The notes under the pieces were generated by a model. The model saw only the letters and a program-made list of their open reading frames with translations. It searched no databases and had not been told where the DNA came from. 64,000 bases of DNA from Candidatus Nomurabacteria bacterium (lineage in GTDB: Bacteria > Patescibacteriota > Minisyncoccia > Phycocordibacterales > JAACPR01), in contig JACKFZ010000002.1 in NCBI GenBank assembly GCA_020632215.1, positions 8,701 through 72,700 on the forward strand. The letters run 5' to 3'. Below are positions 1,891-60,338 of this stretch, in pieces. Made by a program: the position numbers and the translations under genes. Within the stretch, counting starts at the first letter, position 1. Each line of letters starts with the position of its first letter.

Positions 1891-1909
1891 AGATAAATTT
1901 TATCAGAAA

Positions 1910-3019: not shown

Positions 3020-3031
3020 GTGGCTATTATA

Positions 3032-8333: not shown

Positions 8334-8409
8334 ATTATATATTTTCTAACATTAAGAAATAATAAAATTTTATTAAAGTAATCATTAACTATGAATTACT
8401 AATTATTAA

Positions 8410-9630: not shown

Positions 9631-9760
9631 GATTAGTCAATAGTAAATAGTTAATAGTTAATAGTCAAACTAAGTTAGCGGATAATAGTCAGCCATCAGT
9701 TTAATATTAAAAAGTAATTTATGACCTCTCGATACCGACCGCTGATAGTTGATCACTTTT

Positions 9761-19108: not shown

Positions 19109-19282
19109 AACAATTTTTTATTAAATAAATTAAGTGCAAAAACTATATCAGATAATAGTAAATAGTAAATAGTAAATAGTAAGTAGTGCTCAGTTTCCAG
19201 GTGTCAAAAAACCGAAGTAGTTGTCATTCCCGCGGAGGCGGGAATCCCGTACAAACTTAGGTATTATTATTGCCACTTTTTT

Positions 19283-34587: not shown

Positions 34588-34668
34588 TTAGTATATAGAA
34601 TGTAGTATTTAGTATGTAGTATGATTTTACTCTTCTACATTCTAAATTCTACATACTACATTCTTTCC
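34588..34668. repeat. Inverted-repeat element of TAGTATG/TAGAATG/TAGTATT heptamers (family B) between rpsJ and tuf
   Basis: tagtatatagaatgtagtatttagtatgtagtatg ... ctacattctaaattctacatactacattc. Confidence 0.8.
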
Positions 34669-37209: not shown

Positions 37210-37298
37210 TTAGTTAGTAGTTAGTAGTAAATAGTAAGTAGTTTTAGTAAATAAAAAATTAGATTCTATTTACTATTTAGTATTTACTATTTACTGAT
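37210..37298. repeat. Family A heptamer inverted-repeat element between rplL and rplJ
   Basis: ttagttagtagttagtagtaaatagtaagtag ... ctatttactatttagtatttactatttact. Confidence 0.8.
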
Positions 37299-37794: not shown

Positions 37795-37885
37795 TTGATT
37801 AGTAAATAGTAAGTAGTAAATAGTAAGTAGCTTTAGTAAATAAAATTAGATTCTATTTACTATGTTAGTATTTACTATTTACTAG
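37795..37885. repeat. Family A heptamer inverted-repeat element upstream of rplJ
   Basis: tgattagtaaatagtaagtagtaaatagtaagtag ... ctatttactatgttagtatttactatttactag. Confidence 0.8.
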
Positions 37886-42331: not shown

Positions 42332-42342
42332 AACTTCTGTAA

Positions 42343-42432
42343 ATTAATAGTTAATAATTAATAGTTAATAATTAATAGTTAATAATTAATAGTTAATAGT
42401 TAATACTTATCAATTATTAATTAAATAATAAA
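42343..42432. repeat. Tandem AT-rich 14-mer (agttaataattaat) array, a family A variant, upstream of fusA
   Basis: aattaatagttaataattaatagttaataattaatagttaataattaatagttaatagttaatac. Confidence 0.75.
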
Positions 42433-43069: not shown

Positions 43070-43519
43070 TTAATCTTCAAACTTCTTCCTTTCACTAATC
43101 AAAGCATAAAATATATATAGTGTAATGATTATTGGAATTAAACCAACTATTGCTACTCGGCTTGCAGATATATCACCATTTTGTATTTGAGGCAGACTAT
43201 TTATCATGTTTAGAAACTCAGGGGCAGCAAAAGCACTTTTTGCCAATGAAGCCAGTGAGTCCAGAAGAGCTAGGTAGTAGCCCCATTTAGTCATAGTTAC
43301 CAAACCGAATACTATAAATACATAGACTAAGATAAGTAGTGAGTCATGCATTACTATCTCTCCTATTCCTTGCCCTTCTCCTAAAACAGAGAATAGATTA
43401 AGTGATAAACCAATAATAGATAAAATAAATAGAGCGACTACGATTTTTATTCTCAAAGGAATTTTATTATTCTTATTTTTCATACCTAAAATTTTACAGA
43501 TTAAAAAGAATTCAGACAA
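43070..43519 (-). CDS. Small membrane protein, hypothetical
   Basis: 149 aa with 4 hydrophobic helices. Confidence 0.35.
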   Translation of the reverse strand: MSEFFLICKILGMKNKNNKIPLRIKIVVALFILSIIGLSLNLFSVLGEGQGIGEIVMHDSLLILVYVFIVFGLVTMTKWGYYLALLDSLASLAKSAFAAPEFLNMINSLPQIQNGDISASRVAIVGLIPIIITLYIFYALISERKKFED

Positions 43520-43524
43520 TAGGA

Positions 43525-43650
43525 GTTGTCAGATGTCAGAAAAAATTATAAAAAAATAGTAACTGTTGTCTAATGTCTGAAGTCTAGTGTCTGAAGTCTG
43601 AAGTCTGAAGTCTAGTGTCTGAAGTCTGAAGTCTAGTGTCTGATAACTGA
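43525..43650. repeat. Family C: tandem GTCTGAA/GTCTAGT heptamer array (about 11 units) with an upstream inverted copy
   Basis: ttgtcagatgtcag ... gtctgaagtctagtgtctgaagtctgaagtctgaagtctagtgtctgaagtctgaagtctagtgtctgat. Confidence 0.85.
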
Positions 43651-44831: not shown

Positions 44832-44920
44832 GTATTTAGTATGTAGAATTTAGAATGCAGTATGTAATGTAATATGTAGAGTTATTTTATATACTACATT
44901 CTAAATTCTACCTTCTAACT
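44832..44920. repeat. Family B heptamer inverted-repeat element between the giant gene and rpsL
   Basis: tgtatttagtatgtagaatttagaatgcagtatgtaatgtaatatgtagag ... tatactacattctaaattctaccttct. Confidence 0.75.
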
Positions 44921-44984
44921 AAAAAGACCTCTTTCGAGTAGCTGATACTCTAATATATATGTATATTTTTTGCAAGTGCCTCAA

Positions 44985-47900
44985 TTACTGAGCGGTGCTT
45001 AGATTGTCACTATTTTGACTTGTTTGCTCAGTATTAGAATCTACTGGCTCTGTTACCGTAGGTTCAATAACCTCCTCAACAGGTGTTGTTTCATCTACAA
45101 CTGGCTCTGGTTCAGATGCTGGAGCTGGGTCTGTTACTTGCTCTTCTATAACAGGATTTTCCTCAACAGGTGTTGTTTCATCTACAACTGGCTCTGGTTC
45201 AGATACTGGAGCCGGGTCACTGGAAGAATCACCACTATCATCGATCAAAGTGTTTTGCAAAGTAGAACTAGTAACATCTTCAGGTGCAGTTCCACACTCT
45301 CCATTCCTTGTCACAGTCATTCCGTTCTTAATACTTAGACAATATGGTTCACCTGTTTCTTCATCATACAAAGTGATACCTGTAGGTTTTTCTGGAGAAC
45401 CAACAGTTAGTTTTTGGAAGACACTAACAACTGATGAGTAGCTATTGTTAGCAATATCTTGTACTTGTTCTGATAATGCTTGAATCTTAGTATTTAATTC
45501 TTTAATTGCAGAAATAATATATGGAATAAATCCACCATAAGATACTGATTTCAAATGCTCTCCATCAGGTGATGTTTTTACTAATTCTGGGAAAATACTT
45601 TCTACTTCTTGTGCAATTAGACCAATTCTCTTTTCGTTGTTTTCATCTGTCTTCCATTCAAATTCTACCGGTTTCAAATCTACAAATTTTGCCAAGATAT
45701 CTTGAGAGGAAAGTTCTGTGATTTCCTCTTTCAATCTTTGGTCTGATGTACAAATCCATGAAGCATCGCTTGGGTCTATTTCACAGTACGCATTTGCATC
45801 TTGGAATCTAACAGGTGAACCACTTGTTGCATGGAATACATGCAATGGTCGTACAGGTGAAGTGGTACCAACTCCAATATAGCCAGAATCACTTATAAAT
45901 ATGGATGTGTTTGACCCAGAATTTATTCCAAAACTTCCACTTGAAGTAATACCGTCTAAATCAAATGTGATTGTGTTTGTGGCATTTCCAAGAATGATAT
46001 TCCCATCTACCGCCAAATCATCGCCGACCGCTAGATTTCCAGCAAAGCTTGAGGTGTTTGTGGCATTTATTACTAATGCACCTCCAAATACTGATGTTGT
46101 TGAACCAACTCGTAAAGAGTCGACCACTGCACGGCCAGTTACATCTAGAGAATTTGCAAATGAAACATTTCCATTCTCATCCAACACAATTGAAGGAGTA
46201 GATGTTGGGGCGCTCAACAAATTGATTCTTTGACCAATTTCTTGAATAGCGTTTACTGTAACAGCTGCAATGTTTCCGTAAGAAATTCCCTTCTTTCCGT
46301 CTTCTCCATGAACAAGTTCTGGCAAGACACCTTCCAATTCTTGCGCCACGAATCCGATTGTCTCTATATATATGTCTTCTCCGAGTTCGTTTTGACCAGC
46401 TTTTATCTTATATCGTCGAGGTATTAAGTCCATAATCTCTGTTAGACCATAGTTCAAATTGACAATATCGCTTTTAATAGAAACATCAGAAGCGTTGGTC
46501 CATTCTCCTGCAGCATTCAAGGTTGCTGTGTTTCCTGCTCCACCTTCAAAGTTTAGAACTTGAGAAGTATTCATATAAATTGCGCGGTAATCTCCATCTG
46601 AGGCCTCTAGGTAAATTCCGCCAGACGCATCATTTGAAGACTGAGTAATGGCCAAAGCACTACTTGGTGATGATGTACCAATTCCAACACCCCCTGACAA
46701 ATAGTAAATATCGCTTCCTGATTGAGCCCAGAAGCTTCCGCTAGAGTCTCCCCCAATAGCAAAGTAAAATTCATCACCTTTTCCAGATGAGTTTGAACTT
46801 GCACTACTTGAGTTGATTCTTAAATTAAACCCATATGCTGTTTGGGATTCATCATCAAGTGGCGCAAAGACACGATCGCTGGCAACTGACCAACTTGTTT
46901 GGACTGATCCTAAAATAGCGTAGTTTGCAGAATCCATTGGGTCTTCAAAGTTAATCCAGTATCGACCTGTGGCAATTTCGGCGACACTATTTACATTTGA
47001 GCTACCAAATATAGCAGTTCTTTCCAAAGTCACATTTCCAGAAGTTGTTCCTGAAGTACCATGAGTAACTGTGAAGGTATTTGCATCTGCAACACTTGTA
47101 ACTGTGAATAATCCATCGGCAGCTGCACCAGTAGTGAAGTTCAAGTAAACTTTATGGCCCACAATATGTCCGTGTGCAGTTGCAGTGACAGTCACAGTAG
47201 TACCTGATCTTGAATATGTACCAGAAAGATCATCATCGGTCGGTCCATTAACATAAGCCCAAGTACTTGTCGCAGAATTTAAGGCGGAAATATCGGCTTC
47301 AAGCGCAACAATTTTGTCATAGATTGCATTTTTGGAAGCGGCACCAGTGTCGCTATCCCAACCCACACCAAAGGCGGTATCGGAAGGAACAATTGGAATC
47401 CAAGACCCTCCGCTGTCTTTGGCTTCAACGACTCCAGAGTTGTCTCGGACTCCATATCCGGTTGATCCAAAAGTGCTTCCAAAGTTTAGATAAGAAGGTC
47501 CAAGTTGTGCATAAGATGCACCATCAGTAAAAGATAAGTTTGTTGAAAGCAAGTCAAACTGATTACTTCCGCTATTAAGCGCGATGCTGTTGTAATTTAA
47601 ATCCAGACCATTACCACTATTCACCGTCTGAACAACAGAAATATCATCATAAACCGTCAAAGTTTTTCCTGTCTGCAGAGTGCTTGCGTTCAAACCAATT
47701 CCAACTTGATTTGCACTGGCATCAACAAACAGACCATGACTAGCGCCAGTTGCCTCCCATCTGAAATCTTCCGTAGTTCCACCAGATTCGTTTCCAACAA
47801 GACCAACTGATGTAGAGAAAGTTAACCCAGCATCGTCTGTTAATGTGTCGGCATCACTTGCAAAAGGAACTCTTCCTGCAGTCAAAGTTCCATCGATACC

Positions 47901-50900
47901 ACCAGAGCTTGCCGCCCACTGAACACCCGTTCCGGTTGACTGAAGAACATAACCACTTGTTCCAAGAGAGGCATTGTTATCGTAAAGTCCTCCAGTCAAA
48001 GCGAAGTCTCCATCAACAGAAAGTGTGGCATACGGAGTCGATGTTCCAACTCCGACTTTTGCTGTTTCAGAACCATTATCTCCTTTAACAACAAAAACTT
48101 CATTATTTAAGACTGATGCTGTAGAGTTATAAATGACAAAATTTACACCGTTAGTATTTATATCAGAGCCTACAGTTAATACATCGGTGATTTGACCTGC
48201 ACCATCATTATTACCAACAACAAAAGCTCTAGTTTGATTGTCTGATTCAACGGCTAAATCACCTGAAGGTGTAGTTGTACCAATTCCAGTAAATCCTGAA
48301 TACCCGCTAATAGTAAACACTGGATAATTTGTTGGTCCCTCCGCTCTTATTGCAGCCTGAAAGATAGGGTTTGTTTGATTGTCAGTACCGACAACAGAGA
48401 ATCTAGCATAAGGACTTGTTGTTCCGACACCTACATGCCCTGCATTATCAGCAAGAAAGATCGTGTCATACTCTGGATCAGCAGAAAATGGTATAGATAA
48501 TAAGAACAGATCATTGGCCTCTGTACCTTCAACTGCCAACGTAGTAGAAACAGTACTTGTTCCAATTCCAAAATAATTATTTGTTGCATCCCAATAAAAA
48601 TCGCCCTTATCTTGAGCCAGATTTCCTGACCCATCAATAAACAAAACCGCACCAGGATCTCCTGAACCAATAGAATCTCCAATTGAGATTGACCCGGATG
48701 ACGCACCCCAAGTTGGAAGTCCACCAGATACAGATAGAACTTGTCCACTTGTTCCAATAGGAAGTTTAGCCAATGAATTTGAACCATCAGCATAAAGAAT
48801 ATCTCCGGCTGTATAAGTTGTAATTCCTGTACCACCATAAACCTCTCCTATAGCACTTCCATTCCATGTACCACTAGTAATAGTTCCTACGGTTGCAAGT
48901 GAAGAAGCACTTGTGAGATTAGCTAAGGTATCAATAGCAGATTCAATAGTAGATTCTGTTGTGGCGTCTAAACTATCAATATTCAGAATTGACGTATTCC
49001 CACCACTATCATAAATAATAGCTGAACTATTGACACTTAGGTAACCATTTGCATCAAGGTTAATTGAATAAACACCATCAATAGAATCTAGATCAGATAT
49101 TGTGATTCCAGAATTTTTAATAATTTTCCCAGTTGTCCCATTAAATCTCACTATTGCATTATTGGTTGCACTAGCTGGGCCACTAACATCTCCACTACCA
49201 CTAGCAACATCTTGCCAAGTTGGTGCTGTCCCTGTTCCATTTGAGGTTAATGTTTGACCACTTGTTCCAAAGAGACCATTCAGTGTTAGATAATTTGTTG
49301 TATTGAAGTTTGTTGTTGTTGCATTAGTAAAGACTCCTGTTGAAGCTGATGAAATACCTATTGGTGTATTATTAATTGTTCCACCTGATATAGTTAGATC
49401 ATTTGCAACATATGTATCAGCAACTGCTGTACCTTGCCATACACCAGTTCCAATAGTTCCAACCGTTGAAAGATTAGCCAAAGTTGTAATGTTTGGAAGT
49501 GTTGTTGTAGCACTTAGTCTGTTATCGAATCTTGTGTTGGTGAAGTAGAGATTGGTTGAACCTTCACTTAAAGCATCAGTGTCTGTTGCATTGAAGAAGT
49601 TGTAGAAAGGAATACCGAAGCTTGTGAGATTTGTGGCATCTAAGTAGTAACTTCCCTCTTGTCCATCGAATGTTCCTGTCCAGTTGCCTGTGGCGTCTAG
49701 AGTAATAGCTTCACCTACACAGTTAATACCTGTTCCTTCAACATCAGAACAATCAAATGATAATGTGTCATCTGTTAAATCAACACCTGTGCTGACTGCT
49801 AGGTTAGTGTTAGCACTAATGTCGATAGTGTCATTGTTAGTAAAGACATTAGTAACACCTGTTAGGAATGATTCAAGTGAGCTTTCGGTATTGTTGTTCC
49901 AGATTGTAGTTGAAGCATTGATGTAATCTGCAACGTCTGTGTCTGTGTAATGAGTTAGATCTGAGATTTGGCTTTCTGTGATTGAAAGATTAGCCAAAGT
50001 TGTAATGTTTGGAAGTGTTGTTGTAGCACTTAGTCTGTTATCGAATCTTGTGTTGGTGAAGTAGAGATTAGTTGAACCTTCACTTAAAGCATCAGTGTCT
50101 GTTGCATTGAAGAAGTTGTAGAAAGGAATACCGAAGCTTGTGAGATTTGTGGCATCTAAGTAGTAACTTCCCTCTTGTCCATCGAATGTTCCTGTCCAGT
50201 TGCCTGTGGCGTCTAGAGTAATAGCTTCACCTACACAGTTAATACCTGTTCCTTCAACATCAGAACAATCAAATGATAATGTGTCATCTGTTAAATCAAC
50301 ACCTGTGCTGACTGCTAGGTTAGTGTTAGCACTAATGTCGATAGTGTCATTGTTAGTAAAGACATTAGTAACACCTGTTAGGAATGATTCAAGTGAGCTT
50401 TCGGTATTGTTGTTCCAGATTGTAGTTGAAGCATTGATGTAATCTGCAACGTCTGTGTCTGTGTAATGAGTTAGATCTGAGATTTGGCTTTCTGTGATTG
50501 AAAGATTAGCCAAAGTTGTAATGTTTGGAAGTGTTGTTGTAGCACTTAGTCTGTTATCGAATCTTGTGTTGGTGAAGTAGAGATTAGTTGAACCTTCACT
50601 TAAAGCATCAGTGTCTGTTGCATTGAAGAAGTTGTAGAAAGGAATACCGAAGCTTGTGAGATTTGTGGCATCTAAGTAGTAACTTCCCTCTTGTCCATCG
50701 AATGTTCCTGTCCAGTTGCCTGTGGCGTCTAGAGTAATAGCTTCACCTACACAGTTAATACCTGTTCCTTCAACATCAGAACAATCAAATGATAATGTGT
50801 CATCTGTTAAATCAACACCTGTGCTGACTGCTAGGTTAGTGTTAGCACTAATGTCGATAGTGTCATTGTTAGTAAAGACATTAGTAACACCTGTTAGGAA

Positions 50901-53900
50901 TGATTCAAGTGAGCTTTCGGTATTGTTGTTCCAGATTGTAGTTGAAGCATTGATGTAATCTGCAACGTCTGTGTCTGTGTAATGAGTTAGATCTGAGATT
51001 TGGCTTTCTGTGATTGAAAGATTAGCCAAAGTTGTAATGTTTGGAAGTGTTGTTGTAGCACTTAGTCTGTTATCGAATCTTGTGTTGGTGAAGTAGAGAT
51101 TAGTTGAACCTTCACTTAAAGCATCAGTGTCTGTTGCATTGAAGAAGTTGTAGAAAGGAATACCGAAGCTTGTGAGATTTGTGGCATCTAAGTAGTAACT
51201 TCCCTCTTGTCCATCGAATGTTCCTGTCCAGTTGCCTGTGGCGTCTAGAGTAATAGCTTCACCTACACAGTTAATACCTGTTCCTTCAACATCAGAACAA
51301 TCAAATGATAATGTGTCATCTGTTAAATCAACACCTGTGCTGACTGCTAGGTTAGTGTTAGCACTAATGTCGATAGTGTCATTGTTAGTAAAGACATTAG
51401 TAACACCTGTTAGGAATGATTCAAGTGAGCTTTCGGTATTGTTGTTCCAGATTGTAGTTGAAGCATTGATGTAATCTGCAACGTCTGTGTCTGTGTAATG
51501 AGTTAGATCTGAGATTTGGCTTTCTGTGATTGAAAGATTAGCCAAAGTTGTAATGTTTGGAAGTGTTGTTGTAGCACTTAGTCTGTTATCGAATCTTGTG
51601 TTGGTGAAGTAGAGATTAGTTGAACCTTCACTTAAAGCATCAGTGTCTGTTGCATTGAAGAAGTTGTAGAAAGGAATACCGAAGCTTGTGAGATTTGTGG
51701 CATCTAAGTAGTAACTTCCCTCTTGTCCATCGAATGTTCCTGTCCAGTTGCCTGTGGCGTCTAGAGTAATAGCTTCACCTACACAGTTAATACCTGTTCC
51801 TTCAACATCAGAACAATCAAATGATAATGTGTCATCTGTTAAATCAACACCTGTGCTGACTGCTAGGTTAGTGTTAGCACTAATGTCGATAGTGTCATTG
51901 TTAGTAAAGACATTAGTAACACCTGTTAGGAATGATTCAAGTGAGCTTTCGGTATTGTTGTTCCAGATTGTAGTTGAAGCATTGATGTAATCTGCAACGT
52001 CTGTGTCTGTGTAATGAGTTAGATCTGAGATTTGGCTTTCTGTGATTGAAAGATTAGCCAAAGTTGTAATGTTTGGAAGTGTTGTTGTAGCACTTAGTCT
52101 GTTATCGAATCTTGTGTTGGTGAAGTAGAGATTAGTTGAACCTTCACTTAAAGCATCAGTGTCTGTTGCATTGAAGAAGTTGTAGAAAGGAATACCGAAG
52201 CTTGTGAGATTTGTGGCATCTAAGTAGTAACTTCCCTCTTGTCCATCGAATGTTCCTGTCCAGTTGCCTGTGGCGTCTAGAGTAATAGCTTCACCTACAC
52301 AGTTAATACCTGTTCCTTCAACATCAGAACAATCAAATGATAATGTGTCATCTGTTAAATCAACACCTGTGCTGACTGCTAGGTTAGTGTTAGCACTAAT
52401 GTCGATAGTGTCATTGTTAGTAAAGACATTAGTAACACCTGTTAGGAATGATTCAAGTGAGCTTTCGGTATTGTTGTTCCAGATTGTAGTTGAAGCATTG
52501 ATGTAATCTGCAACGTCTGTGTCTGTGTAATGAGTTAGATCTGAGATTTGGCTTTCTGTGATTGAAAGATTAGCCAAAGTTGTAATGTTTGGAAGTGTTG
52601 TTGTAGCACTTAGTCTGTTATCGAATCTTGTGTTGGTGAAGTAGAGATTAGTTGAACCTTCACTTAAAGCATCAGTGTCTGTTGCATTGAAGAAGTTGTA
52701 GAAAGGAATACCGAAGCTTGTGAGATTTGTGGCATCTAAGTAGTAACTTCCCTCTTGTCCATCGAATGTTCCTGTCCAGTTGCCTGTGGCGTCTAGAGTA
52801 ATAGCTTCACCTACACAGTTAATACCTGTTCCTTCAACATCAGAACAATCAAATGATAATGTGTCATCTGTTAAATCAACACCTGTGCTGACTGCTAGGT
52901 TAGTGTTAGCACTAATGTCGATAGTGTCATTGTTAGTAAAGACATTAGTAACACCTGTTAGGAATGATTCAAGTGAGCTTTCGGTATTGTTGTTCCAGAT
53001 TGTAGTTGAAGCATTGATGTAATCTGCAACGTCTGTGTCTGTGTAATGAGTTAGATCTGAGATTTGGCTTTCTGTGATTGAAAGATTAGCCAAAGTTGTA
53101 ATGTTTGGAAGTGTTGTTGTAGCACTTAGTCTGTTATCGAATCTTGTGTTGGTGAAGTAGAGATTAGTTGAACCTTCACTTAAAGCATCAGTGTCTGTTG
53201 CATTGAAGAAGTTGTAGAAAGGAATACCGAAGCTTGTGAGATTTGTGGCATCTAAGTAGTAACTTCCCTCTTGTCCATCGAATGTTCCTGTCCAGTTGCC
53301 TGTGGCGTCTAGAGTAATAGCTTCACCTACACAGTTAATACCTGTTCCTTCAACATCAGAACAATCAAATGATAATGTGTCATCTGTTAAATCAACACCT
53401 GTGCTGACTGCTAGGTTAGTGTTAGCACTAATGTCGATAGTGTCATTGTTAGTAAAGACATTAGTAACACCTGTTAGGAATGATTCAAGTGAGCTTTCGG
53501 TATTGTTGTTCCAGATTGTAGTTGAAGCATTGATGTAATCTGCAACGTCTGTGTCTGTGTAATGAGTTAGATCTGAGATTTGGCTTTCTGTGATTGAAAG
53601 ATTAGCCAAAGTTGTAATGTTTGGAAGTGTTGTTGTAGCACTTAGTCTGTTATCGAATCTTGTGTTGGTGAAGTAGAGATTAGTTGAACCTTCACTTAAA
53701 GCATCAGTGTCTGTTGCATTGAAGAAGTTGTAGAAAGGAATACCGAAGCTTGTGAGATTTGTGGCATCTAAGTAGTAACTTCCCTCTTGTCCATCGAATG
53801 TTCCTGTCCAGTTGCCTGTGGCGTCTAGAGTAATAGCTTCACCTACACAGTTAATACCTGTTCCTTCAACATCAGAACAATCAAATGATAATGTGTCATC

Positions 53901-56900
53901 TGTTAAATCAACACCTGTGCTGACTGCTAGGTTAGTGTTAGCACTAATGTCGATAGTGTCATTGTTAGTAAAGACATTAGTAACACCTGTTAGGAATGAT
54001 TCAAGTGAGCTTTCGGTATTGTTGTTCCAGATTGTAGTTGAAGCATTGATGTAATCTGCAACGTCTGTGTCTGTGTAATGAGTTAGATCTGAGATTTGGC
54101 TTTCTGTGATTGAAAGATTAGCCAAAGTTGTAATGTTTGGAAGTGTTGTTGTAGCACTTAGTCTGTTATCGAATCTTGTGTTGGTGAAGTAGAGATTAGT
54201 TGAACCTTCACTTAAAGCATCAGTGTCTGTTGCATTGAAGAAGTTGTAGAAAGGAATACCGAAGCTTGTGAGATTTGTGGCATCTAAGTAGTAACTTCCC
54301 TCTTGTCCATCGAATGTTCCTGTCCAGTTGCCTGTGGCGTCTAGAGTAATAGCTTCACCTACACAGTTAATACCTGTTCCTTCAACATCAGAACAATCAA
54401 ATGATAATGTGTCATCTGTTAAATCAACACCTGTGCTGACTGCTAGGTTAGTGTTAGCACTAATGTCGATAGTGTCATTGTTAGTAAAGACATTAGTAAC
54501 ACCTGTTAGGAATGATTCAAGTGAGCTTTCGGTATTGTTGTTCCAGATTGTAGTTGAAGCATTGATGTAATCTGCAACGTCTGTGTCTGTGTAATGAGTT
54601 AGATCTGAGATTTGGCTTTCTGTGATTGAAAGATTAGCCAAAGTTGTAATGTTTGGAAGTGTTGTTGTAGCACTTAGTCTGTTATCGAATCTTGTGTTGG
54701 TGAAGTAGAGATTAGTTGAACCTTCACTTAAAGCATCAGTGTCTGTTGCATTGAAGAAGTTGTAGAAAGGAATACCGAAGCTTGTGAGATTTGTGGCATC
54801 TAAGTAGTAACTTCCCTCTTGTCCATCGAATGTTCCTGTCCAGTTGCCTGTGGCGTCTAGAGTAATAGCTTCACCTACACAGTTAATACCTGTTCCTTCA
54901 ACATCAGAACAATCAAATGATAATGTGTCATCTGTTAAATCAACACCTGTGCTGACTGCTAGGTTAGTGTTAGCACTAATGTCGATAGTGTCATTGTTAG
55001 TAAAGACATTAGTAACACCTGTTAGGAATGATTCAAGTGAGCTTTCGGTATTGTTGTTCCAGATTGTAGTTGAAGCATTGATGTAATCTGCAACGTCTGT
55101 GTCTGTGTAATGAGTTAGATCTGAGATTTGGCTTTCTGTGATTGAAAGATTAGCCAAAGTTGTAATGTTTGGAAGTGTTGTTGTAGCACTTAGTCTGTTA
55201 TCGAATCTTGTGTTGGTGAAGTAGAGATTAGTTGAACCTTCACTTAAAGCATCAGTGTCTGTTGCATTGAAGAAGTTGTAGAAAGGAATACCGAAGCTTG
55301 TGAGATTTGTGGCATCTAAGTAGTAACTTCCCTCTTGTCCATCGAATGTTCCTGTCCAGTTGCCTGTGGCGTCTAGAGTTAGTGCACCGCTTGAGATTGT
55401 TAGACCTGAACCTGTGAGGTCTGTTACGTATTCCGAGTTAATTCCAAATGTGTCTGTGTAGAAGGTGGTTGAGGTTGCACCAGTAACTGTAATGTCATCA
55501 AAAAGAGAATCCCCAATAACCTCTAAGATATACCCTGATGATGTTGTCGCACTACCACCTACAATAACAACATCAGATGTGTCATCTGGGTATATGGCTA
55601 GATTATCTGTGGTCGTTGCCCAAACTCCAGATCCTCCACCTCCTCCTGTTGAATCAGCTCCCCAAGTCGGCACACCTCCAGAAACTTTCAAAACTTGACC
55701 GCTAGACCCTATAGGCAACTTAGCTAATGAATTGGCACCATCAGCATAAAGAATATCACCCGTCGTGTATGTTGTAATTCCAGTGCCACCATAGACTTCT
55801 CCTATAACACTTCCATTCCACACACCACTTGTAATAGTTCCTATAGTAGCAAGTGAAGAAGCAGATGTTAGATTAGATAAGGTATCAATAGCAGATTCAA
55901 TAGTAGATTCTGTTGTGGTATCTAGTGCATCAATGTTTGAGAGAGTAGCTGTTCCTGCTGAGTCAGTAATAATAGATGTTCCAGCTATTGTTAAACTTCC
56001 ACTTGTATTTAGATCTACAGATGCTACACCATCTATGTTATTTGAATCATCTATGGTGATTCCTGAATTTTGAATGGTTGTTCCTGTTATTCCGTTAAAT
56101 CTTACTATTGCGTTATCTGTAGCTCCAATTGGACCTGAGACATTGCCAGCTCCTGAGGGAGTTGCCCAAGTTCCATCTCCTCGCCAAAATGTTGCACTTG
56201 ATGCTCCGGTTCCTGAGCCTAAGTTTGTGACAGGAAGATTTCCACTAACATCACTTGCCAAATCAACCTGATCCAGAGTAATTTGTTGTCCTGATAATGT
56301 GAGGTAATCATAAGAGCCTGCAAGTGTGACTGGATCATGTGAAGAAATACCTAGAGATGATGTGGCTACCGTGTCCCATCTACTACCTGTCCAGTACAGC
56401 ACATCTCCATATGCACTACCTGCTTCGTGTGCAATTGTAGTTGAAGCATTGATATATGAAGCAACTCTTGCATCTGTAAAATACAAATTGGTACCTCCTT
56501 CACTTAGAGCATCTGTAGTAGTACCTGCAAGATGACCTGCAAAGTCTGTAATTGTGTAGTGATCTAGATTACTGATTTGAGATTCAGTGATTGAAAGATT
56601 AGGTAGTGCTGTGATTGAAGCAACAGATGATGTGGCAGCCAAGCTTGAAGTGAATCTGTTTTCTGTGTAGTAGAAGTTGTTTGATCCTTCACTTAGAGCG
56701 TCTGTGGTTGTGGCATACCAGTTTGCAAGTGATAGATAGTTTGAAGCTGTTATGTTGTCGTCTATGTATGCATCGCCGATTGAAGTCCCATTCCACACAC
56801 CTGAAGTAATAGTACCTACTGTGGAAAGATTAGGAAGAGCAGTTAGCGTACCAACTGATGATGTTGCATTGATTCGTGCATCTGCTCTGGCATTGGTGAA

Positions 56901-59342
56901 GTAGAGATTAGTTGAACCTTCACTTAAAGCATCAGTGTCTGTTGCATTGAAGAAGTTGTAGAAAGGAATACCGAAGCTTGTGAGATTTGTGGCATCTAAG
57001 TAGTAACTTCCCTCTTGTCCATCGAATGTTCCTGTCCAGTTGCCTGTGGCGTCTAGAGTAATAGCTTCACCTACACAGTTAATACCTGTTCCTTCAACAT
57101 CAGAACAATCAAATGATAATGTGTCATCTGTTAAATCAACACCTGTGCTGACTGCTAGGTTAGTGTTAGCACTAATGTCGATAGTGTCATTGTTAGTAAA
57201 GACATTAGTAACACCTGTTAGGAATGATTCAAGTGAGCTTTCGGTATTGTTGTTCCAGATTGTAGTTGAAGCATTGATGTAATCTGCAACGTCTGTGTCT
57301 GTGTAATGAGTTAGATCTGAGATTTGGCTTTCTGTGATTGAAAGATTAGCCAAAGTTGTAATGTTTGGAAGTGTTGTTGTAGCACTTAGTCTGTTATCGA
57401 ATCTTGTGTTGGTGAAGTAGAGATTGGTTGAACCTTCACTTAAAGCATCAGTGTCTGTTGCATTGAAGAAGTTGTAGAAAGGAATACCGAAGCTTGTGAG
57501 ATTTGTGGCATCTAAGTAGTAACTTCCCTCTTGTCCATCGAATGTTCCTGTCCAGTTGCCTGTGGCGTCTAGAGTTAGTGCACCGCTTGAGATTGTTAGA
57601 CCTGAACCTGTGAGGTCTGTTACGTATTCCGAGTTAATTCCAAATGTGTCTGTGTAGAAGGTGGTTGAGGTTGCATTTGTGGTTGTCGAATTTTCAAATA
57701 ATGCATTTCCATTCACGTCCAAAGTTGTTCCGACATCAAAAGTTAATGTTCCAGAAGTAAACGAATCGCTAGCATCACTTCTAAGGAATTGTGTTGAATC
57801 GAAACTATCCAAAGTTGTTGCATCTCCACCTCCGCCACCTCCAGAAATCCCAAGCGAGCTCGTTGCTACCCACTCCACTCCTGATCCTGTTGTTTGCAAA
57901 ACATAACCATTTGTTCCAGCAGAACCATTAGTATCATAGAACTTTCCTGAAAGACTAGCGTCTGTTATATCAACTGATGGCAATGTAGAAGTCGCTGATG
58001 AAGTAGCTATGAAATATGAAGCTCGAACATCTCCATCAAATACTCCGTCCCCAGCAACAGACAAGGTTTTATACGGACTCGAAGTTCCAATACCCAATTT
58101 CTTGTTTGTTTGATCCCAATAGAAATTACTGTTGTCTTGTGACAGAAGACCTGATGAATCTATATACAAAACAGATCCACTAGTACCACTAGTGATGCTA
58201 CTTCCAATTGAAACACTAGCACTGACTGCTCCCCAAATAGGATCTGTACCTGTTCCTTGAGAAATAAGAGCTTGTCCTGATGTGCCCCATAAACCGTTTA
58301 AAGTAAATCCGCCTTCAAAATCTATATCGCCAGAAATTGTTGACGATGAATTTGTAACGGTAATTGTAGAAAATGTTGTATCACCCGCTGTTAGAGAATC
58401 ATTCCCAATATCAATTGATCCAAAACCAGAAGTAATAGATCCAGAATCTAAAACACCAACCGAAGTTGCATCAGCAACTGTACTGTAGTTTGTACTACTT
58501 CCTCCGTAAATATTTTTTATTGTTACACCTTGTCCTGAAAAGGATTCAATTTTGTTATTCAAATCATTCAAAACTTTTTCAATTGATGAAAGATTGATAC
58601 CACTAACAATAACAGGGGAGGTGTAGACTGTTTGAGAAACAACTCGATCTGGAATATTATTTGCGACATTCGAATTATCACTTTGATTGTCAGCAACCAA
58701 AACTTTTTTATCCTGACAAGAATTAAAACCTATCCAACTGGTGAAACCACAGTAAACATTTTTGATAAAACTTTTTACAAAAGTTCCTTCACTAGCAACT
58801 GCCAATTGATTTGAAGGATCACTAATTTTTGATGTATTTATTTTTTCAAAAACAGAATCTAAACTGTCACTAACATTGGCTACTAATCTATGAGCGAAAT
58901 CTGAAGTCTCCACAAGAGAACCTTCTACAAAATTTTTGCTAGCAAGTTGTTGAGAGAAATTTGCAGGAATCATCCCACTAGCCACCAAAGCAAAAATAAA
59001 AAAGAAAGAAGTTGTTAGATAAAATCCACGCAAAAAGTTTTTAGCTTTTTTGTCCTCTTGATGTTTATAAAATGAACTTCCAATTCTAGCTTGGGAAGCT
59101 TGCTTGTATGCTGTAGATTTTTCTTGAGACAATTCTTCTGATCGCCTAGTTTTTTCTATAGCCATCCTCTCGATATATTCCCTGACAGATTTCTCTTCTA
59201 CTAGCCATGCTCTTCCCACCATCTTTCCATCCAACATTCCTTGTCGACAAAGTCGCCCGACATAGTCGCTACTATAACCCAAAAGGTTGGCGGCCTCTTT
59301 GGCTGAAATATATTTTTTATTATCAATATCAAAACGATTCAT
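44985..59342 (-). CDS. Giant (4,785 aa) tail-fibre-like surface protein: N-terminal excisionase-type HTH, one TM helix, large T/S/N/G-rich repeat ectodomain, two C-terminal Peptidase_S74 intramolecular-chaperone domains
   Basis: The single ORF is open over 14,358 nt. Residues about 10-60 (ISAKEAANLLGYSSDYVGRLCRQGMLDGKMVGRAWLVEEKSVREYI) match the excisionase/MerR-type HTH pattern. The TM helix FYLTTSFFFIFALVASGMIPANF is at about residues 105-127. The recurring tail-fibre motif GIGT.SPy..L.V.GD occurs several times. About 11.5 nucleotide-identical 172-aa repeats. Near the C-terminus are two S74-like domains (SDVSIKSDIVNL...IGFVAQELEGVLPELV...YGNIAAVTVNAIQEIGQRINLL and SDQRLKEEITEL...IGLIAQEVESIFPELV...GFIPYIISAIKELNTKIQAL). 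The C-terminal tail carries the duplicated motif DPAPxSEPEPVVDETTPVEE. Confidence 0.8.
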   Translation of the reverse strand: MNRFDIDNKKYISAKEAANLLGYSSDYVGRLCRQGMLDGKMVGRAWLVEEKSVREYIERMAIEKTRRSEELSQEKSTAYKQASQARIGSSFYKHQEDKKAKNFLRGFYLTTSFFFIFALVASGMIPANFSQQLASKNFVEGSLVETSDFAHRLVANVSDSLDSVFEKINTSKISDPSNQLAVASEGTFVKSFIKNVYCGFTSWIGFNSCQDKKVLVADNQSDNSNVANNIPDRVVSQTVYTSPVIVSGINLSSIEKVLNDLNNKIESFSGQGVTIKNIYGGSSTNYSTVADATSVGVLDSGSITSGFGSIDIGNDSLTAGDTTFSTITVTNSSSTISGDIDFEGGFTLNGLWGTSGQALISQGTGTDPIWGAVSASVSIGSSITSGTSGSVLYIDSSGLLSQDNSNFYWDQTNKKLGIGTSSPYKTLSVAGDGVFDGDVRASYFIATSSATSTLPSVDITDASLSGKFYDTNGSAGTNGYVLQTTGSGVEWVATSSLGISGGGGGGDATTLDSFDSTQFLRSDASDSFTSGTLTFDVGTTLDVNGNALFENSTTTNATSTTFYTDTFGINSEYVTDLTGSGLTISSGALTLDATGNWTGTFDGQEGSYYLDATNLTSFGIPFYNFFNATDTDALSEGSTNLYFTNTRFDNRLSATTTLPNITTLANLSITESQISDLTHYTDTDVADYINASTTIWNNNTESSLESFLTGVTNVFTNNDTIDISANTNLAVSTGVDLTDDTLSFDCSDVEGTGINCVGEAITLDATGNWTGTFDGQEGSYYLDATNLTSFGIPFYNFFNATDTDALSEGSTNLYFTNARADARINATSSVGTLTALPNLSTVGTITSGVWNGTSIGDAYIDDNITASNYLSLANWYATTTDALSEGSNNFYYTENRFTSSLAATSSVASITALPNLSITESQISNLDHYTITDFAGHLAGTTTDALSEGGTNLYFTDARVASYINASTTIAHEAGSAYGDVLYWTGSRWDTVATSSLGISSHDPVTLAGSYDYLTLSGQQITLDQVDLASDVSGNLPVTNLGSGTGASSATFWRGDGTWATPSGAGNVSGPIGATDNAIVRFNGITGTTIQNSGITIDDSNNIDGVASVDLNTSGSLTIAGTSIITDSAGTATLSNIDALDTTTESTIESAIDTLSNLTSASSLATIGTITSGVWNGSVIGEVYGGTGITTYTTGDILYADGANSLAKLPIGSSGQVLKVSGGVPTWGADSTGGGGGSGVWATTTDNLAIYPDDTSDVVIVGGSATTSSGYILEVIGDSLFDDITVTGATSTTFYTDTFGINSEYVTDLTGSGLTISSGALTLDATGNWTGTFDGQEGSYYLDATNLTSFGIPFYNFFNATDTDALSEGSTNLYFTNTRFDNRLSATTTLPNITTLANLSITESQISDLTHYTDTDVADYINASTTIWNNNTESSLESFLTGVTNVFTNNDTIDISANTNLAVSTGVDLTDDTLSFDCSDVEGTGINCVGEAITLDATGNWTGTFDGQEGSYYLDATNLTSFGIPFYNFFNATDTDALSEGSTNLYFTNTRFDNRLSATTTLPNITTLANLSITESQISDLTHYTDTDVADYINASTTIWNNNTESSLESFLTGVTNVFTNNDTIDISANTNLAVSTGVDLTDDTLSFDCSDVEGTGINCVGEAITLDATGNWTGTFDGQEGSYYLDATNLTSFGIPFYNFFNATDTDALSEGSTNLYFTNTRFDNRLSATTTLPNITTLANLSITESQISDLTHYTDTDVADYINASTTIWNNNTESSLESFLTGVTNVFTNNDTIDISANTNLAVSTGVDLTDDTLSFDCSDVEGTGINCVGEAITLDATGNWTGTFDGQEGSYYLDATNLTSFGIPFYNFFNATDTDALSEGSTNLYFTNTRFDNRLSATTTLPNITTLANLSITESQISDLTHYTDTDVADYINASTTIWNNNTESSLESFLTGVTNVFTNNDTIDISANTNLAVSTGVDLTDDTLSFDCSDVEGTGINCVGEAITLDATGNWTGTFDGQEGSYYLDATNLTSFGIPFYNFFNATDTDALSEGSTNLYFTNTRFDNRLSATTTLPNITTLANLSITESQISDLTHYTDTDVADYINASTTIWNNNTESSLESFLTGVTNVFTNNDTIDISANTNLAVSTGVDLTDDTLSFDCSDVEGTGINCVGEAITLDATGNWTGTFDGQEGSYYLDATNLTSFGIPFYNFFNATDTDALSEGSTNLYFTNTRFDNRLSATTTLPNITTLANLSITESQISDLTHYTDTDVADYINASTTIWNNNTESSLESFLTGVTNVFTNNDTIDISANTNLAVSTGVDLTDDTLSFDCSDVEGTGINCVGEAITLDATGNWTGTFDGQEGSYYLDATNLTSFGIPFYNFFNATDTDALSEGSTNLYFTNTRFDNRLSATTTLPNITTLANLSITESQISDLTHYTDTDVADYINASTTIWNNNTESSLESFLTGVTNVFTNNDTIDISANTNLAVSTGVDLTDDTLSFDCSDVEGTGINCVGEAITLDATGNWTGTFDGQEGSYYLDATNLTSFGIPFYNFFNATDTDALSEGSTNLYFTNTRFDNRLSATTTLPNITTLANLSITESQISDLTHYTDTDVADYINASTTIWNNNTESSLESFLTGVTNVFTNNDTIDISANTNLAVSTGVDLTDDTLSFDCSDVEGTGINCVGEAITLDATGNWTGTFDGQEGSYYLDATNLTSFGIPFYNFFNATDTDALSEGSTNLYFTNTRFDNRLSATTTLPNITTLANLSITESQISDLTHYTDTDVADYINASTTIWNNNTESSLESFLTGVTNVFTNNDTIDISANTNLAVSTGVDLTDDTLSFDCSDVEGTGINCVGEAITLDATGNWTGTFDGQEGSYYLDATNLTSFGIPFYNFFNATDTDALSEGSTNLYFTNTRFDNRLSATTTLPNITTLANLSITESQISDLTHYTDTDVADYINASTTIWNNNTESSLESFLTGVTNVFTNNDTIDISANTNLAVSTGVDLTDDTLSFDCSDVEGTGINCVGEAITLDATGNWTGTFDGQEGSYYLDATNLTSFGIPFYNFFNATDTDALSEGSTNLYFTNTRFDNRLSATTTLPNITTLANLSITESQISDLTHYTDTDVADYINASTTIWNNNTESSLESFLTGVTNVFTNNDTIDISANTNLAVSTGVDLTDDTLSFDCSDVEGTGINCVGEAITLDATGNWTGTFDGQEGSYYLDATNLTSFGIPFYNFFNATDTDALSEGSTNLYFTNTRFDNRLSATTTLPNITTLANLSTVGTIGTGVWQGTAVADTYVANDLTISGGTINNTPIGISSASTGVFTNATTTNFNTTNYLTLNGLFGTSGQTLTSNGTGTAPTWQDVASGSGDVSGPASATNNAIVRFNGTTGKIIKNSGITISDLDSIDGVYSINLDANGYLSVNSSAIIYDSGGNTSILNIDSLDATTESTIESAIDTLANLTSASSLATVGTITSGTWNGSAIGEVYGGTGITTYTAGDILYADGSNSLAKLPIGTSGQVLSVSGGLPTWGASSGSISIGDSIGSGDPGAVLFIDGSGNLAQDKGDFYWDATNNYFGIGTSTVSTTLAVEGTEANDLFLLSIPFSADPEYDTIFLADNAGHVGVGTTSPYARFSVVGTDNQTNPIFQAAIRAEGPTNYPVFTISGYSGFTGIGTTTPSGDLAVESDNQTRAFVVGNNDGAGQITDVLTVGSDINTNGVNFVIYNSTASVLNNEVFVVKGDNGSETAKVGVGTSTPYATLSVDGDFALTGGLYDNNASLGTSGYVLQSTGTGVQWAASSGGIDGTLTAGRVPFASDADTLTDDAGLTFSTSVGLVGNESGGTTEDFRWEATGASHGLFVDASANQVGIGLNASTLQTGKTLTVYDDISVVQTVNSGNGLDLNYNSIALNSGSNQFDLLSTNLSFTDGASYAQLGPSYLNFGSTFGSTGYGVRDNSGVVEAKDSGGSWIPIVPSDTAFGVGWDSDTGAASKNAIYDKIVALEADISALNSATSTWAYVNGPTDDDLSGTYSRSGTTVTVTATAHGHIVGHKVYLNFTTGAAADGLFTVTSVADANTFTVTHGTSGTTSGNVTLERTAIFGSSNVNSVAEIATGRYWINFEDPMDSANYAILGSVQTSWSVASDRVFAPLDDESQTAYGFNLRINSSSASSNSSGKGDEFYFAIGGDSSGSFWAQSGSDIYYLSGGVGIGTSSPSSALAITQSSNDASGGIYLEASDGDYRAIYMNTSQVLNFEGGAGNTATLNAAGEWTNASDVSIKSDIVNLNYGLTEIMDLIPRRYKIKAGQNELGEDIYIETIGFVAQELEGVLPELVHGEDGKKGISYGNIAAVTVNAIQEIGQRINLLSAPTSTPSIVLDENGNVSFANSLDVTGRAVVDSLRVGSTTSVFGGALVINATNTSSFAGNLAVGDDLAVDGNIILGNATNTITFDLDGITSSGSFGINSGSNTSIFISDSGYIGVGTTSPVRPLHVFHATSGSPVRFQDANAYCEIDPSDASWICTSDQRLKEEITELSSQDILAKFVDLKPVEFEWKTDENNEKRIGLIAQEVESIFPELVKTSPDGEHLKSVSYGGFIPYIISAIKELNTKIQALSEQVQDIANNSYSSVVSVFQKLTVGSPEKPTGITLYDEETGEPYCLSIKNGMTVTRNGECGTAPEDVTSSTLQNTLIDDSGDSSSDPAPVSEPEPVVDETTPVEENPVIEEQVTDPAPASEPEPVVDETTPVEEVIEPTVTEPVDSNTEQTSQNSDNLSTAQ
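49466..55378. repeat. Perfect 516-bp (172-aa) tandem repeat array, about 11.5 copies, inside the giant gene
   Basis: The nucleotide sequence recurs with an exact 516-nt period. Antisense ORFs with identical translations begin at 49684, 50200, ... 54844. The first copy differs at 49551 (g versus a). An extra copy and its flank (about 56880..57680) duplicate 54800..55480. Confidence 0.9.
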
Positions 59343-59533
59343 TGAGTACTATTTGCGTTGCGGATAAGTGGTTGCAGTCACCTATTCCATAGCTCAGATT
59401 TGGGTGAATTCCCTTGACGCATTTCGAGAAAATTCACTACCTATATTTTATCGTCCATGTACATATTTATATATAAAAAATAACTTGCCCGTGTGGACAA
59501 GTTCGTTCATCCGAAAAAACTATATTTTACAAG

Positions 59534-60142
59534 CTATATCGGATATCCAGTAAAAATTTTAACCAGCCAAAATATTAACGGAGTAAAAAATTTCCAGATG
59601 AAGAAGATAAATATAATGATCAGAAAAAAGCCTTGTTTCTCAATGGTTTCACGCAATCCTAAATATTTTTGAGGTAAAAGCGAAAATAATACTTTTGATC
59701 CATCTAGCGGAGGAATAGGGATTAAATTAAAAATAGCCAAGACAACATTAATAATTACAATCAGCATTGATATTTCATAAAAAGATGGTGTAACTAGATT
59801 TCCGCCAAATTTTATAAAAATTCCAAAAATAAATGCAATAAAAAGATTTGAAAATGGGCCAGCAATTGCTACCAAAAATTCGCCCCATCTTCTATTTTTT
59901 AAATTATACGGATTATATGGAACAGGCTTTGCCCAGCCAAAAATAAATCCCCCGGGGAGAATTGCTAGCAACAATGGAAAAATAATTGAACCAAACACAT
60001 CTAAATGTTTCACCGGATTCAAAGTTAATCTTCCTTGATATTGTGCTGTCCTATCCCCCAAGGCCAAGGCCATATATCCATGAGAAACTTCATGGACAAC
60101 AGCTGACATAATTAAGACAATAATTGAAAAAATAATTTCCAT
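59534..60142 (-). CDS. Site-2 protease (M50 family) intramembrane zinc metalloprotease, small form
   Basis: The HExxH motif sits in a TM helix (VVHEVSHGYMAL). The second motif NLIPIPPLDGSKV matches the S2P NxxPxxxLDGG signature. Several TM helices. The start is placed at MEIIF because the upstream extension overlaps a repeated intergenic motif. Confidence 0.7.
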   Translation of the reverse strand: MEIIFSIIVLIMSAVVHEVSHGYMALALGDRTAQYQGRLTLNPVKHLDVFGSIIFPLLLAILPGGFIFGWAKPVPYNPYNLKNRRWGEFLVAIAGPFSNLFIAFIFGIFIKFGGNLVTPSFYEISMLIVIINVVLAIFNLIPIPPLDGSKVLFSLLPQKYLGLRETIEKQGFFLIIIFIFFIWKFFTPLIFWLVKIFTGYPI

Positions 60143-60338
60143 AAATTTAAAAAATGAAATCCGAAATACAAAATTCGAAACATTAGTTGGAAACACAAAT
60201 TTAGTTTATAAAGACTTTCGGATTTCGTGCTTCGTGCTTCGAATTTCTCTTGGTTGCATTATAAAGAAAGTGTGTTAGGATAGCAAAACCTAATTCTCCA
60301 ACCTAATTAGAAAACAGGAGAGATTTAAGAAAAAAGAT

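Follow-up and report, generated by a model that had tools for sequence, protein, structure and literature searches.

A Homogeneous 516-Nucleotide Tandem Array in a Tail-Fibre-Like Giant Gene of a Candidatus Nomurabacteria Bacterium, and Its Possible Role as a Variable Stalk

Introduction

How does a gene come to hold more than eleven copies of a long repeat whose complete copies are the same at every nucleotide, and what could such an array do for the protein that contains it? The question is raised by a giant gene in a 64,000-nucleotide (nt) stretch of contig JACKFZ010000002.1 from a Candidatus Nomurabacteria bacterium (assembly GCA_020632215.1). This whole stretch is called the window, and all coordinates given here are window positions. 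The giant gene (44985..59342) lies on the minus strand and encodes 4,785 amino acids (aa), which makes it the largest open reading frame (ORF) of the window, as determined from the ORF list, translation and an exact-sequence look-up. The look-up returned NCBI MCB9805733.1, annotated as 'tail fiber domain-containing protein [Candidatus Nomurabacteria bacterium]' and located on a 107,484-nt contig. Members of the Patescibacteria are believed to spend their lives attached to the cells of a host, and their attachment organelles are almost unknown.

We consider it somewhat probable that the array is a real in-frame tandem duplication, amplified and homogenised very recently, within the stalk of a membrane-anchored, tail-fibre-like surface protein. 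The extent of the array, the variants at its edges and the assemblies that break at it are examined first. The architecture of the protein, its relatives and the repeat unit itself are then discussed together with the other explanations that have to be considered.

Extent and Identity of the Tandem Array

When one unit was compared with the giant gene by BLASTN, 11 complete 516-nt units were found at 49704..55379 that are 100% identical over 5,676 nt. They are followed, in the direction of the gene, by a 238-nt partial unit (49466..49703) with one mismatch. When the window was shifted by 516 nt and compared with its unshifted sequence, an exact run of 5,309 nt (49555..54863 versus +516) emerged that is preceded by an exact run of 88 nt. 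By both methods the main array occupies 49466..55379 on the minus strand, with 11.46 copies as assembled, and encodes aa 1322-3293, or 41% of the protein. Each unit is 172 codons long and in frame (516 = 3 x 172). Tandem Repeats Finder (TRF) did not report the array because its maximum period was 500.

The first-pass annotation of this DNA had described about 11.5 nucleotide-identical tandem copies, which the BLASTN count bears out, and had read the identity as a sign of very recent amplification or homogenisation, with which 11 units free of differences agree. It had also pointed to one divergent copy. Such a copy exists, with the variant at 49554 (G versus the consensus A) rather than at 49551, and it is the last, partial and C-proximal copy of the protein rather than the first because the giant gene is on the minus strand. 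The plus strand contains one TTG-initiated ORF of 80 aa per unit (49684-55086 and 57040-57282); these are a mechanical by-product of the repeat, and nothing indicates that they are genes.

A Shared Edge Variant, a Recent Patch and Two Old Superblocks

The variant at 49554, on the minus strand in the partial copy that ends the main array, is synonymous and changes unit codon 50 from ACT to ACC, both of which encode threonine. An identical ACC variant is present at 57426, in the first copy of a second, smaller array, and the two mismatches are therefore the same codon change. Codon 50 occurs 14 times in all, 12 times as ACT and twice as ACC, and the ACC variant sits 88 nt and 150 nt inside the arrays, in the edge copy of each. 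A synonymous variant that is shared and that lies beside array boundaries is hard to attribute to random error. The pattern fits what is expected if unequal exchange homogenises the interior units while the boundary copies escape. We propose that whole units would be gained or lost when sister chromosomes undergo unequal homologous recombination, or when replication slips from one 516-nt unit to another, and that the same exchange would keep the interior units identical. Each such event would lengthen or shorten the ectodomain by 172 residues and preserve the reading frame.

The smaller, N-proximal array (56893..57575, minus strand, aa 590-817) consists of one full unit, which contains the mismatch at 57426, and 167 nt of a second, or 1.32 copies. 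It is entered through a lead-in of 100 nt (lead-in A, 57576..57675, minus strand, aa 557-589) that is identical to the one in front of the main array (lead-in B, 55380..55479, minus strand, aa 1289-1321). The lead-in, the full unit and the 167 nt of the second unit make up a patch of 783 nt in which 56893..57675 matches 54697..55479 with a single mismatch (57426/55230), which corresponds to 99.9% identity. On either side of the patch the identity falls abruptly to background.

This patch is embedded in a larger pattern. The giant gene contains two paralogous superblocks (aa ~531-1229 and aa ~1263-3547), each of which is composed of a lead-in, a unit array and a tail module of the form 'VSGP...PTWGA'. 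At the protein level the two superblocks share 73% of 59 aa in their lead-ins and 72% of 173 aa in their tail modules. With 99.9% identity inside old superblocks that are only ~72-73% identical, the patch looks like a recent conversion or re-copying over an ancient duplication. A separate conversion event could have moved the 783-nt tract between the starts of the two superblocks. A second-order duplication with about 100 nt of flank had been noticed in the first-pass annotation; the duplication stands, and its bounds are refined from 56880..57680 and 54800..55480 to 56893..57675 and 54697..55479. Its description as a further copy with flank holds for the duplicated tract but probably not for a simple extra copy, as the tract is a sharp-edged patch within diverged superblocks.

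Assembly Evidence

The repeat as such is real and is present in several samples. Short-read assemblies in Logan (SRR12358675, SRR12358676 and SRR26387399) contain the M50 protease gene that precedes the giant gene together with the 5' end of the giant gene, and their identity to the window is 99.93-99.97%. Over 6,351 nt the window differs from independent short-read contigs by 2 mismatches and by no indels. The three independent contigs stop at 57650/57646, inside lead-in A, so that they extend 26-30 nt beyond the start of the patch at 57675. These ends coincide with the branch point expected in a k-mer graph if the duplicated sequence is real. The orthologue in a relative with the same gene order (L088) has two 100-N scaffold gaps (2886-2985 and 8341-8440), and a gap begins at the equivalent of aa 573, inside the lead-in; gene calling placed no plus-strand gene in this 7.7-kb region, an example of how such genes go missing from the annotation of short-read metagenome-assembled genomes. 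A further short-read contig of the same organism (L093) begins in the last 38 codons of the giant gene, in or just after an 87-nt repeat at the C-terminal end. It is because three short-read assemblies break at the entry to the repeat, and the relative has a gap at the same place, that the repeat itself can be regarded as real. Together with a 14.4-kb reading frame that is intact, these observations led us to set aside a collapse or mis-join, which had been offered earlier as a possible origin of the repeat.

An exact 30-mer scan of metagenome contigs for the array gave 0 matches. Scans of genome, viral and metagenome contigs with protein patterns returned only distant relatives, whose identity does not exceed 73-78% and covers only a portion of the unit.

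Two of the short-read sequences show features of their own. The contig from SRR26387399 (L091) runs 4 nt past the common end (57649-57646) and reads GAAC there instead of ACAC. The sequence 'ACAG|GAAC' is what would be expected if the lead-in (TAC ACA G..) were joined in frame to the unit (TGG ACA GGA ACA). With four bases only, this end may be an alternative recombinant junction or an error tip. An ENA scaffold of 2,419 nt from a second sample (L092) matches 44888-46011, the last ~1.1 kb of the gene, with 99.3% identity and 8 mismatches, and upstream of the giant-gene end it is joined to an unrelated Peptidase_S9/NUDIX gene. It is either a chimeric scaffold or derived from a strain with a stand-alone 286-aa S74 protein.

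Architecture of the Giant Protein

The N-terminus of the giant protein contains an HTH_17 or excisionase-type helix-turn-helix domain (aa 11-59; 59166..59312, minus strand) that was identified with PF12728 (31.9 bits versus a cut-off of 27) and TIGR01764 (31.3 versus 28.8). A transmembrane segment follows at aa ~103-129 (58968..59027, minus strand) with the core GFYLTTSFFFIFALVASGMI. In a Kyte-Doolittle scan of the whole protein, windows above 1.6 were found only at aa 103-111. A Lys/Arg-rich stretch precedes the transmembrane segment, and because this stretch is on its N side the segment is predicted to be an N-in signal anchor, with the HTH_17 domain probably in the cytoplasm. The ~4,650 residues beyond the transmembrane helix are rich in Thr, Asn, Asp and Ser and are predicted to form the ectodomain.

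The C-terminal ~1,500 residues resemble tail fibres and contain two Peptidase_S74 domains. PF13884 matches two stretches with 90.6 bits versus a gathering score of 22, the best of which is aa 4533-4589 (E 7.7e-26). The first domain (46188..46490, minus strand) starts with SDVSIK at aa 4285 and the second (45438..45746, minus strand) with SDQRLK at aa 4533; their C-terminal limits are approximate, and ~150 residues of fibre-like sequence lie between them. Both open with an S-D-x-x-x-K motif, which we take to be the Ser-Lys dyad that corresponds to Ser911/Lys916 of endosialidase. The two motifs would provide two possible sites of autocleavage. In a PHROG search, dozens of tail-fibre families matched the C-terminal 400 residues, which include the second S74 region. 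No specific binding domain was found in the C-terminal ~1,500 residues in Pfam and PHROG searches. After the second S74 domain the protein ends in a Pro/Glu-rich tail (45072..45218, minus strand) with two copies of the 20-aa sequence DPAP(V/A)SEPEPVVDETTPVEE, 87 nt apart.

With this architecture the array could act as a spacer of variable length that sets the reach of the C-terminal, tail-fibre-like part from the N-terminal anchor; the target would presumably be a host cell or a substrate. Folding or trimerisation would be aided by the S74 domains, which would then be cleaved off.

Relatives in Patescibacteria

A HMMER search with one unit recovered 756 cluster representatives at E <= 1e-3. 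Many of the matched proteins are 1,000-5,700 aa long, with up to 35 matched stretches each. Of the genome loci that were recovered, 40 of 42 have Patescibacteria-type record titles (Paceibacterota, Parcubacteria, Saccharibacteria and similar). The widespread part of the unit is limited to positions ~38-70 (TDALSEGSTNLYFT...), and the full 172-aa combination is nearly unique, as P0021 alone matches positions 3-167. Judged from these matches, the unit is a particular concatenation of short modules that are common in the surface giants of Patescibacteria. Homologous giants (such as L042, L002, L012, P0017 and P0033) share the short modules GDWTGTFDGQEGSYYL, TDALxEGxxNLY, RFDNRLSATTTLPNITTLANL and ITESQISDLTHYTD with the giant protein, and almost none has the full 172-aa combination.

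Several of these homologues contain in-frame, near-identical arrays of long period. A giant ORF of the Nomurabacteria genome HK-STAS-PATE-30 (L042) has 3.66 copies of 1878 nt with 98.7% identity, UBA2163 (L002, CP174359.1, titled a complete genome) has at least 3.43 copies of 840 nt with 97.6% identity, and L012 has 2 copies of 1269 nt with 98.5% identity. All of the array periods seen in homologues are multiples of 3. Recent in-frame amplification is thus a recurring trait of this gene class. The homologous arrays differ from the one described here in their smaller number of copies (2-3.7), their lower identity (97.6-98.7%) and their units of 840, 1269 and 1878 nt.

The N-terminal architecture also recurs. 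HTH_17 with one transmembrane helix was found in many giant Patescibacteria proteins of up to 5,704 aa (L004, L010, L011, L015, L018, L023, L026, L029, L032, L034 and others), and in clusters of small proteins of 250-400 aa just upstream of giants. A DNA-binding-type domain tethered to a huge ectodomain is apparently an architecture typical of the lineage. No close orthologue was recovered when the N-terminal 589 aa served as query, and the window contains no paralogue of this N-terminus. The giant gene of L088 is 39% (N-terminal) to 52% (C-terminal) identical to that of the window, compared with 87% for elongation factor G (EF-G), and the giant protein therefore evolves fast. Literature searches on tail-fibre giants of Patescibacteria and on the run and sample accessions returned nothing specific.

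The 172-Residue Unit

The unit contains eight N-x-S/T sequons and one C-x9-C pair. The number of sequons is modestly higher than expected from composition, both in the unit (8 versus 5.2) and in the whole protein (155 versus 104.5). The unit had been described as dense in sequons, and the count is correct while the density is only modestly above expectation. N-glycosylation was rejected as a reading of these counts, as the enrichment is driven by composition and repetition. Every cysteine beyond the transmembrane helix belongs to a pair with a spacing of 9-14 residues (C-x9-14-C), and the pair is kept in homologues, as in FDCSDVEGAGIDC of P0010. The paired cysteines fit an extracytoplasmic protein with local disulfide loops, to judge by their spacing and conservation. 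The earlier suggestion that the pair forms a small disulfide loop is plausible in view of this pairing and conservation and of a hairpin that was predicted at this position in a low-confidence model.

Searches with the unit against Pfam and NCBIfam assigned no family; the best Pfam match was DUF2621 below threshold (17.3 bits versus 27.7). PDB sequences gave nothing significant, with a chance-level match at E 0.27, and PHROG gave weak matches to 'structural protein' and 'minor tail protein' families. An AlphaFold2 monomer model of the unit with flanks, made with a 20-sequence alignment, had a predicted local distance difference test (pLDDT) score of 54.6 and a predicted TM-score (pTM) of 0.22; this is the model with the hairpin at the cysteine pair. 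With the unit in the ATGNWTG...AITLD register and 51 sequences the values were 68.4 and 0.36. Residues 41-100 of the latter model are its sole moderately confident part (pLDDT 74-92), and helices were placed at 28-35, 53-62, 90-106 and 109-120. The low-confidence prediction is a mix of helix and coil overall. Foldseek with the unit model found 0 matches in PDB and none better than E 1.3 in BFVD. S74-containing fibres are trimeric, and a monomer prediction is expected to fail if the giant protein is a fibre of this kind.

Comparison with Known Systems

The closest parallel is found in the Periscope Proteins, which include SasG/Aap (G5-E), Rib and Sgo_0707 (SHIRT) and whose stalks are encoded by tandem arrays of long DNA repeats with high identity (Whelan et al. 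2021; PMC8201768). In these proteins intragenic recombination alters the number of repeats and hence how far out the distal functional domain is presented, and the highest repeat identity accompanies the greatest variation in number (PMC8201768). The giant protein resembles them in having long in-frame repeats of very high DNA identity (11 x 516 nt at 100%) in a predicted surface protein, in the position of the array between a predicted anchor and a putative distal functional part, and in the mechanism proposed, which is intragenic recombination. It differs in several respects. The unit has no Pfam family or recognisable globular fold. The predicted anchor is an N-terminal transmembrane segment that follows a putatively cytoplasmic HTH domain, where Periscope Proteins have a C-terminal LPXTG or secretion-system anchor. 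The topology is mirrored, as the C-terminus forms the distal end, which resembles tail fibres and has S74 chaperones. The organism is an uncultured Patescibacterium in which the array is known from one assembly, and strain variation is proposed only.

Phage tail fibres and endosialidase-type tailspikes are a second point of comparison. The giant protein shares with them the S74 domains (two, 90.6 bits), the S-D-x-x-x-K motifs, the PHROG tail-fibre matches and a fibre-like composition rich in Thr, Ser, Asn and Gly. It differs from them in that the gene is located in the core chromosome beside rpsL and encodes a transmembrane anchor and an HTH domain in a protein of 4,785 aa. A further difference is that it has one S74 domain after another, two in all, and then a tail of ~150 residues.

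The array also has in common with simple-sequence contingency loci that a surface protein gene would be made variable by repeats through recombination or slippage. In contrast to such loci, the unit is 516 nt long, a multiple of three, and the array is wholly inside the ORF. On/off switching is impossible because 516 = 3 x 172, and the gain or loss of a unit never shifts the frame; a phase-variable contingency locus was rejected for this reason. The first-pass annotation had proposed length and phase variation of the ectodomain, and of these only the former is retained, as a change in copy number would alter ectodomain length.

Genuine Array, Artefact or Neutral Expansion

Taking the whole chain of inference together, we lean slightly towards an array that works like a Periscope-type variable stalk. 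Several points weigh against this interpretation. The number of 11.46 copies comes from the window assembly alone and stands unverified; no second assembly that spans the array was found, and the other contigs recovered from this organism end at the repeat or contain only the 3' part of the gene. The caution in the first-pass annotation about copy number is therefore upheld, since the window is the only sequence that spans the array. Perfect identity would also be expected from polishing with multi-mapped reads or from an assembler looping through a graph cycle. The array, with 11.5 copies at 100%, is far more extreme than any at the ~85 related loci that were examined. The predictions that the protein is exposed at the surface, trimerises, is cleaved at S74 or binds anything come from homology, and a 'rigid rod' shape of the units is an assumption beside AlphaFold2 models of low confidence and Foldseek searches that came back empty.

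The first alternative accepts the repeat and attributes the count of 11.46 copies, the perfect identity, or both, to the assembler. The assembler may have run round a graph cycle with a count that was capped or set by coverage, a long-read consensus may have been collapsed or expanded, or real differences may have been homogenised by polishing with multi-mapped short reads. Every short-read assembly of this organism breaks at the repeat, and the interior copies are 100% identical compared with 97.6-98.7% in the arrays of relatives, which an artefact of this type would explain along with the lack of a second spanning sequence. A simple loop does not describe the graph, however, as there are two entries, two exits (unit offsets 167 and 238) and a single-nucleotide-polymorphism bubble, and short-read loop resolvers normally fail on such graphs. 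Blanket homogenisation should have erased the ACC variant, which is kept 88 and 150 nt inside the arrays. The intact 14.4-kb frame, with junctions that are in frame with diverged homologous modules, and the agreement over 6,351 nt with the short-read contigs, which indicates high base quality, argue in the same direction, as do the multi-copy arrays of homologues, one of which is in a record titled a complete genome. On this evidence we judge it rather unlikely that the copy number, the perfect identity or both were produced by the assembler.

A real amplification could also be neutral and transient, with a length that has no adaptive role and that will decay or collapse. So high a count is seen in this genome only, the full unit is nearly unique while its positions ~38-70 are widespread, and the orthologue in L088 diverges fast, which would suit a passing expansion. 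Such a view has to account for the in-frame, long-period arrays that recur in several homologous giants and for a burden of 2,200 residues (46% of the protein), which we would expect to be costly in a reduced genome if it were useless. That all periods are multiples of 3 also speaks against neutrality, though an open ORF alone demands this. We regard a purely neutral expansion as doubtful.

It is quite unlikely, in our estimation, that the units are ligand-binding modules whose copies raise avidity or multivalency instead of reach, or that they present an immunodominant or phage-decoy surface. This possibility draws on the sub-motif TDALSEGSTNLYFT...RFDNRLSATT, which is the most conserved part of the unit and is present many times per protein in hundreds of relatives, and on its weak matches to phage structural and minor tail protein families. 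Some Periscope stalk domains may bind ligands as well (PMC8201768). Pfam, NCBIfam, PDB and Foldseek searches, on the other hand, identified no binding domain, lectin or enzyme signature in the unit. A variable-length stalk is the interpretation that we carry forward.

Genomic Setting

The neighbours of the giant gene belong to the core chromosome. Upstream, in the direction of the gene, are genes for ComEC, a metallo-beta-lactamase-fold protein and an M50 site-2 protease, the last of which (59534..60196) is immediately upstream of the giant gene and separated from it by a terminator-like hairpin (59482..59503, minus strand). Downstream are rpsL, which adjoins the giant gene, rpsG, fusA, tuf, the S10/spc ribosomal operons, SecY, map and ndk; the EF-G encoded in this neighbourhood has the accession MCB9805727.1. 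A prophage origin, or a phage structural module, was rejected in view of these neighbours. The order M50, giant gene, rpsL is also found in L088, whose EF-G is 87% identical. A conserved link between the M50 gene and the giant gene was likewise rejected, as their adjacency is limited to this species and L088 and M50 is absent from the other loci with an HTH_17 N-terminus (36 in total).

We give hardly any credence to the idea that the fibre is a contact sensor in which HTH_17, tethered by the single transmembrane helix, would be freed into the cytoplasm by regulated intramembrane proteolysis, for example by the adjacent M50 protease, when the ectodomain is pulled or shed at host contact, since the recurrence of the HTH and transmembrane N-terminus in giant homologues and the adjacent M50 genes here and in L088 are set against the loci of this type that have no M50 and the terminator-like hairpin between the two genes. 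Such a sensor would resemble Notch, SREBP or ToxR/TcpP signalling, and the copy number of the unit would determine the sensing distance.

Two other features of the window may be mentioned. TRF identified heptamer tandem arrays directly 5' of the start codons of several minus-strand genes (9634-9668, 19154-19187, 37211-37295, 37800-37830, 42342-42429 and 43568-43650, and also 34589-34664). On the gene strand the heptamers read T(T/A)ACTAT, repeated 4-12 times, and TTCAGAC, repeated 8 times at 43568-43650. The genes behind the arrays include those for an M29 peptidase and ndk, two at ~37.2-37.8 kb, fusA and the ORF 43070..43519. In the syntenic L088, TRF found no arrays of this type. The heptamers of the window could serve as promoter or leader elements or as arrays to which a regulator binds. 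A 596-aa protein (15328-17118, plus strand) with matches to PKD, Ig-like and SprB-repeat domains is another candidate surface protein.

Implications

High-identity repeat stalks in surface proteins and the tail-fibre annotation are already known; the lineage and the module are new. As short-read assemblies of this organism and of a relative break or have gaps at this locus, such genes are systematically truncated in public metagenome-assembled genomes. Giant genes of this kind are revealed by long reads alone, which matters for the quality of these genomes.

The Periscope principle has so far been described in cultured pathogens with globular repeat domains, while the repeat in this case is an uncharacterised 172-residue module. 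If the copy number of the array varies, the principle would extend to a tail-fibre-like, membrane-tethered giant protein of an uncultured episymbiont lineage.

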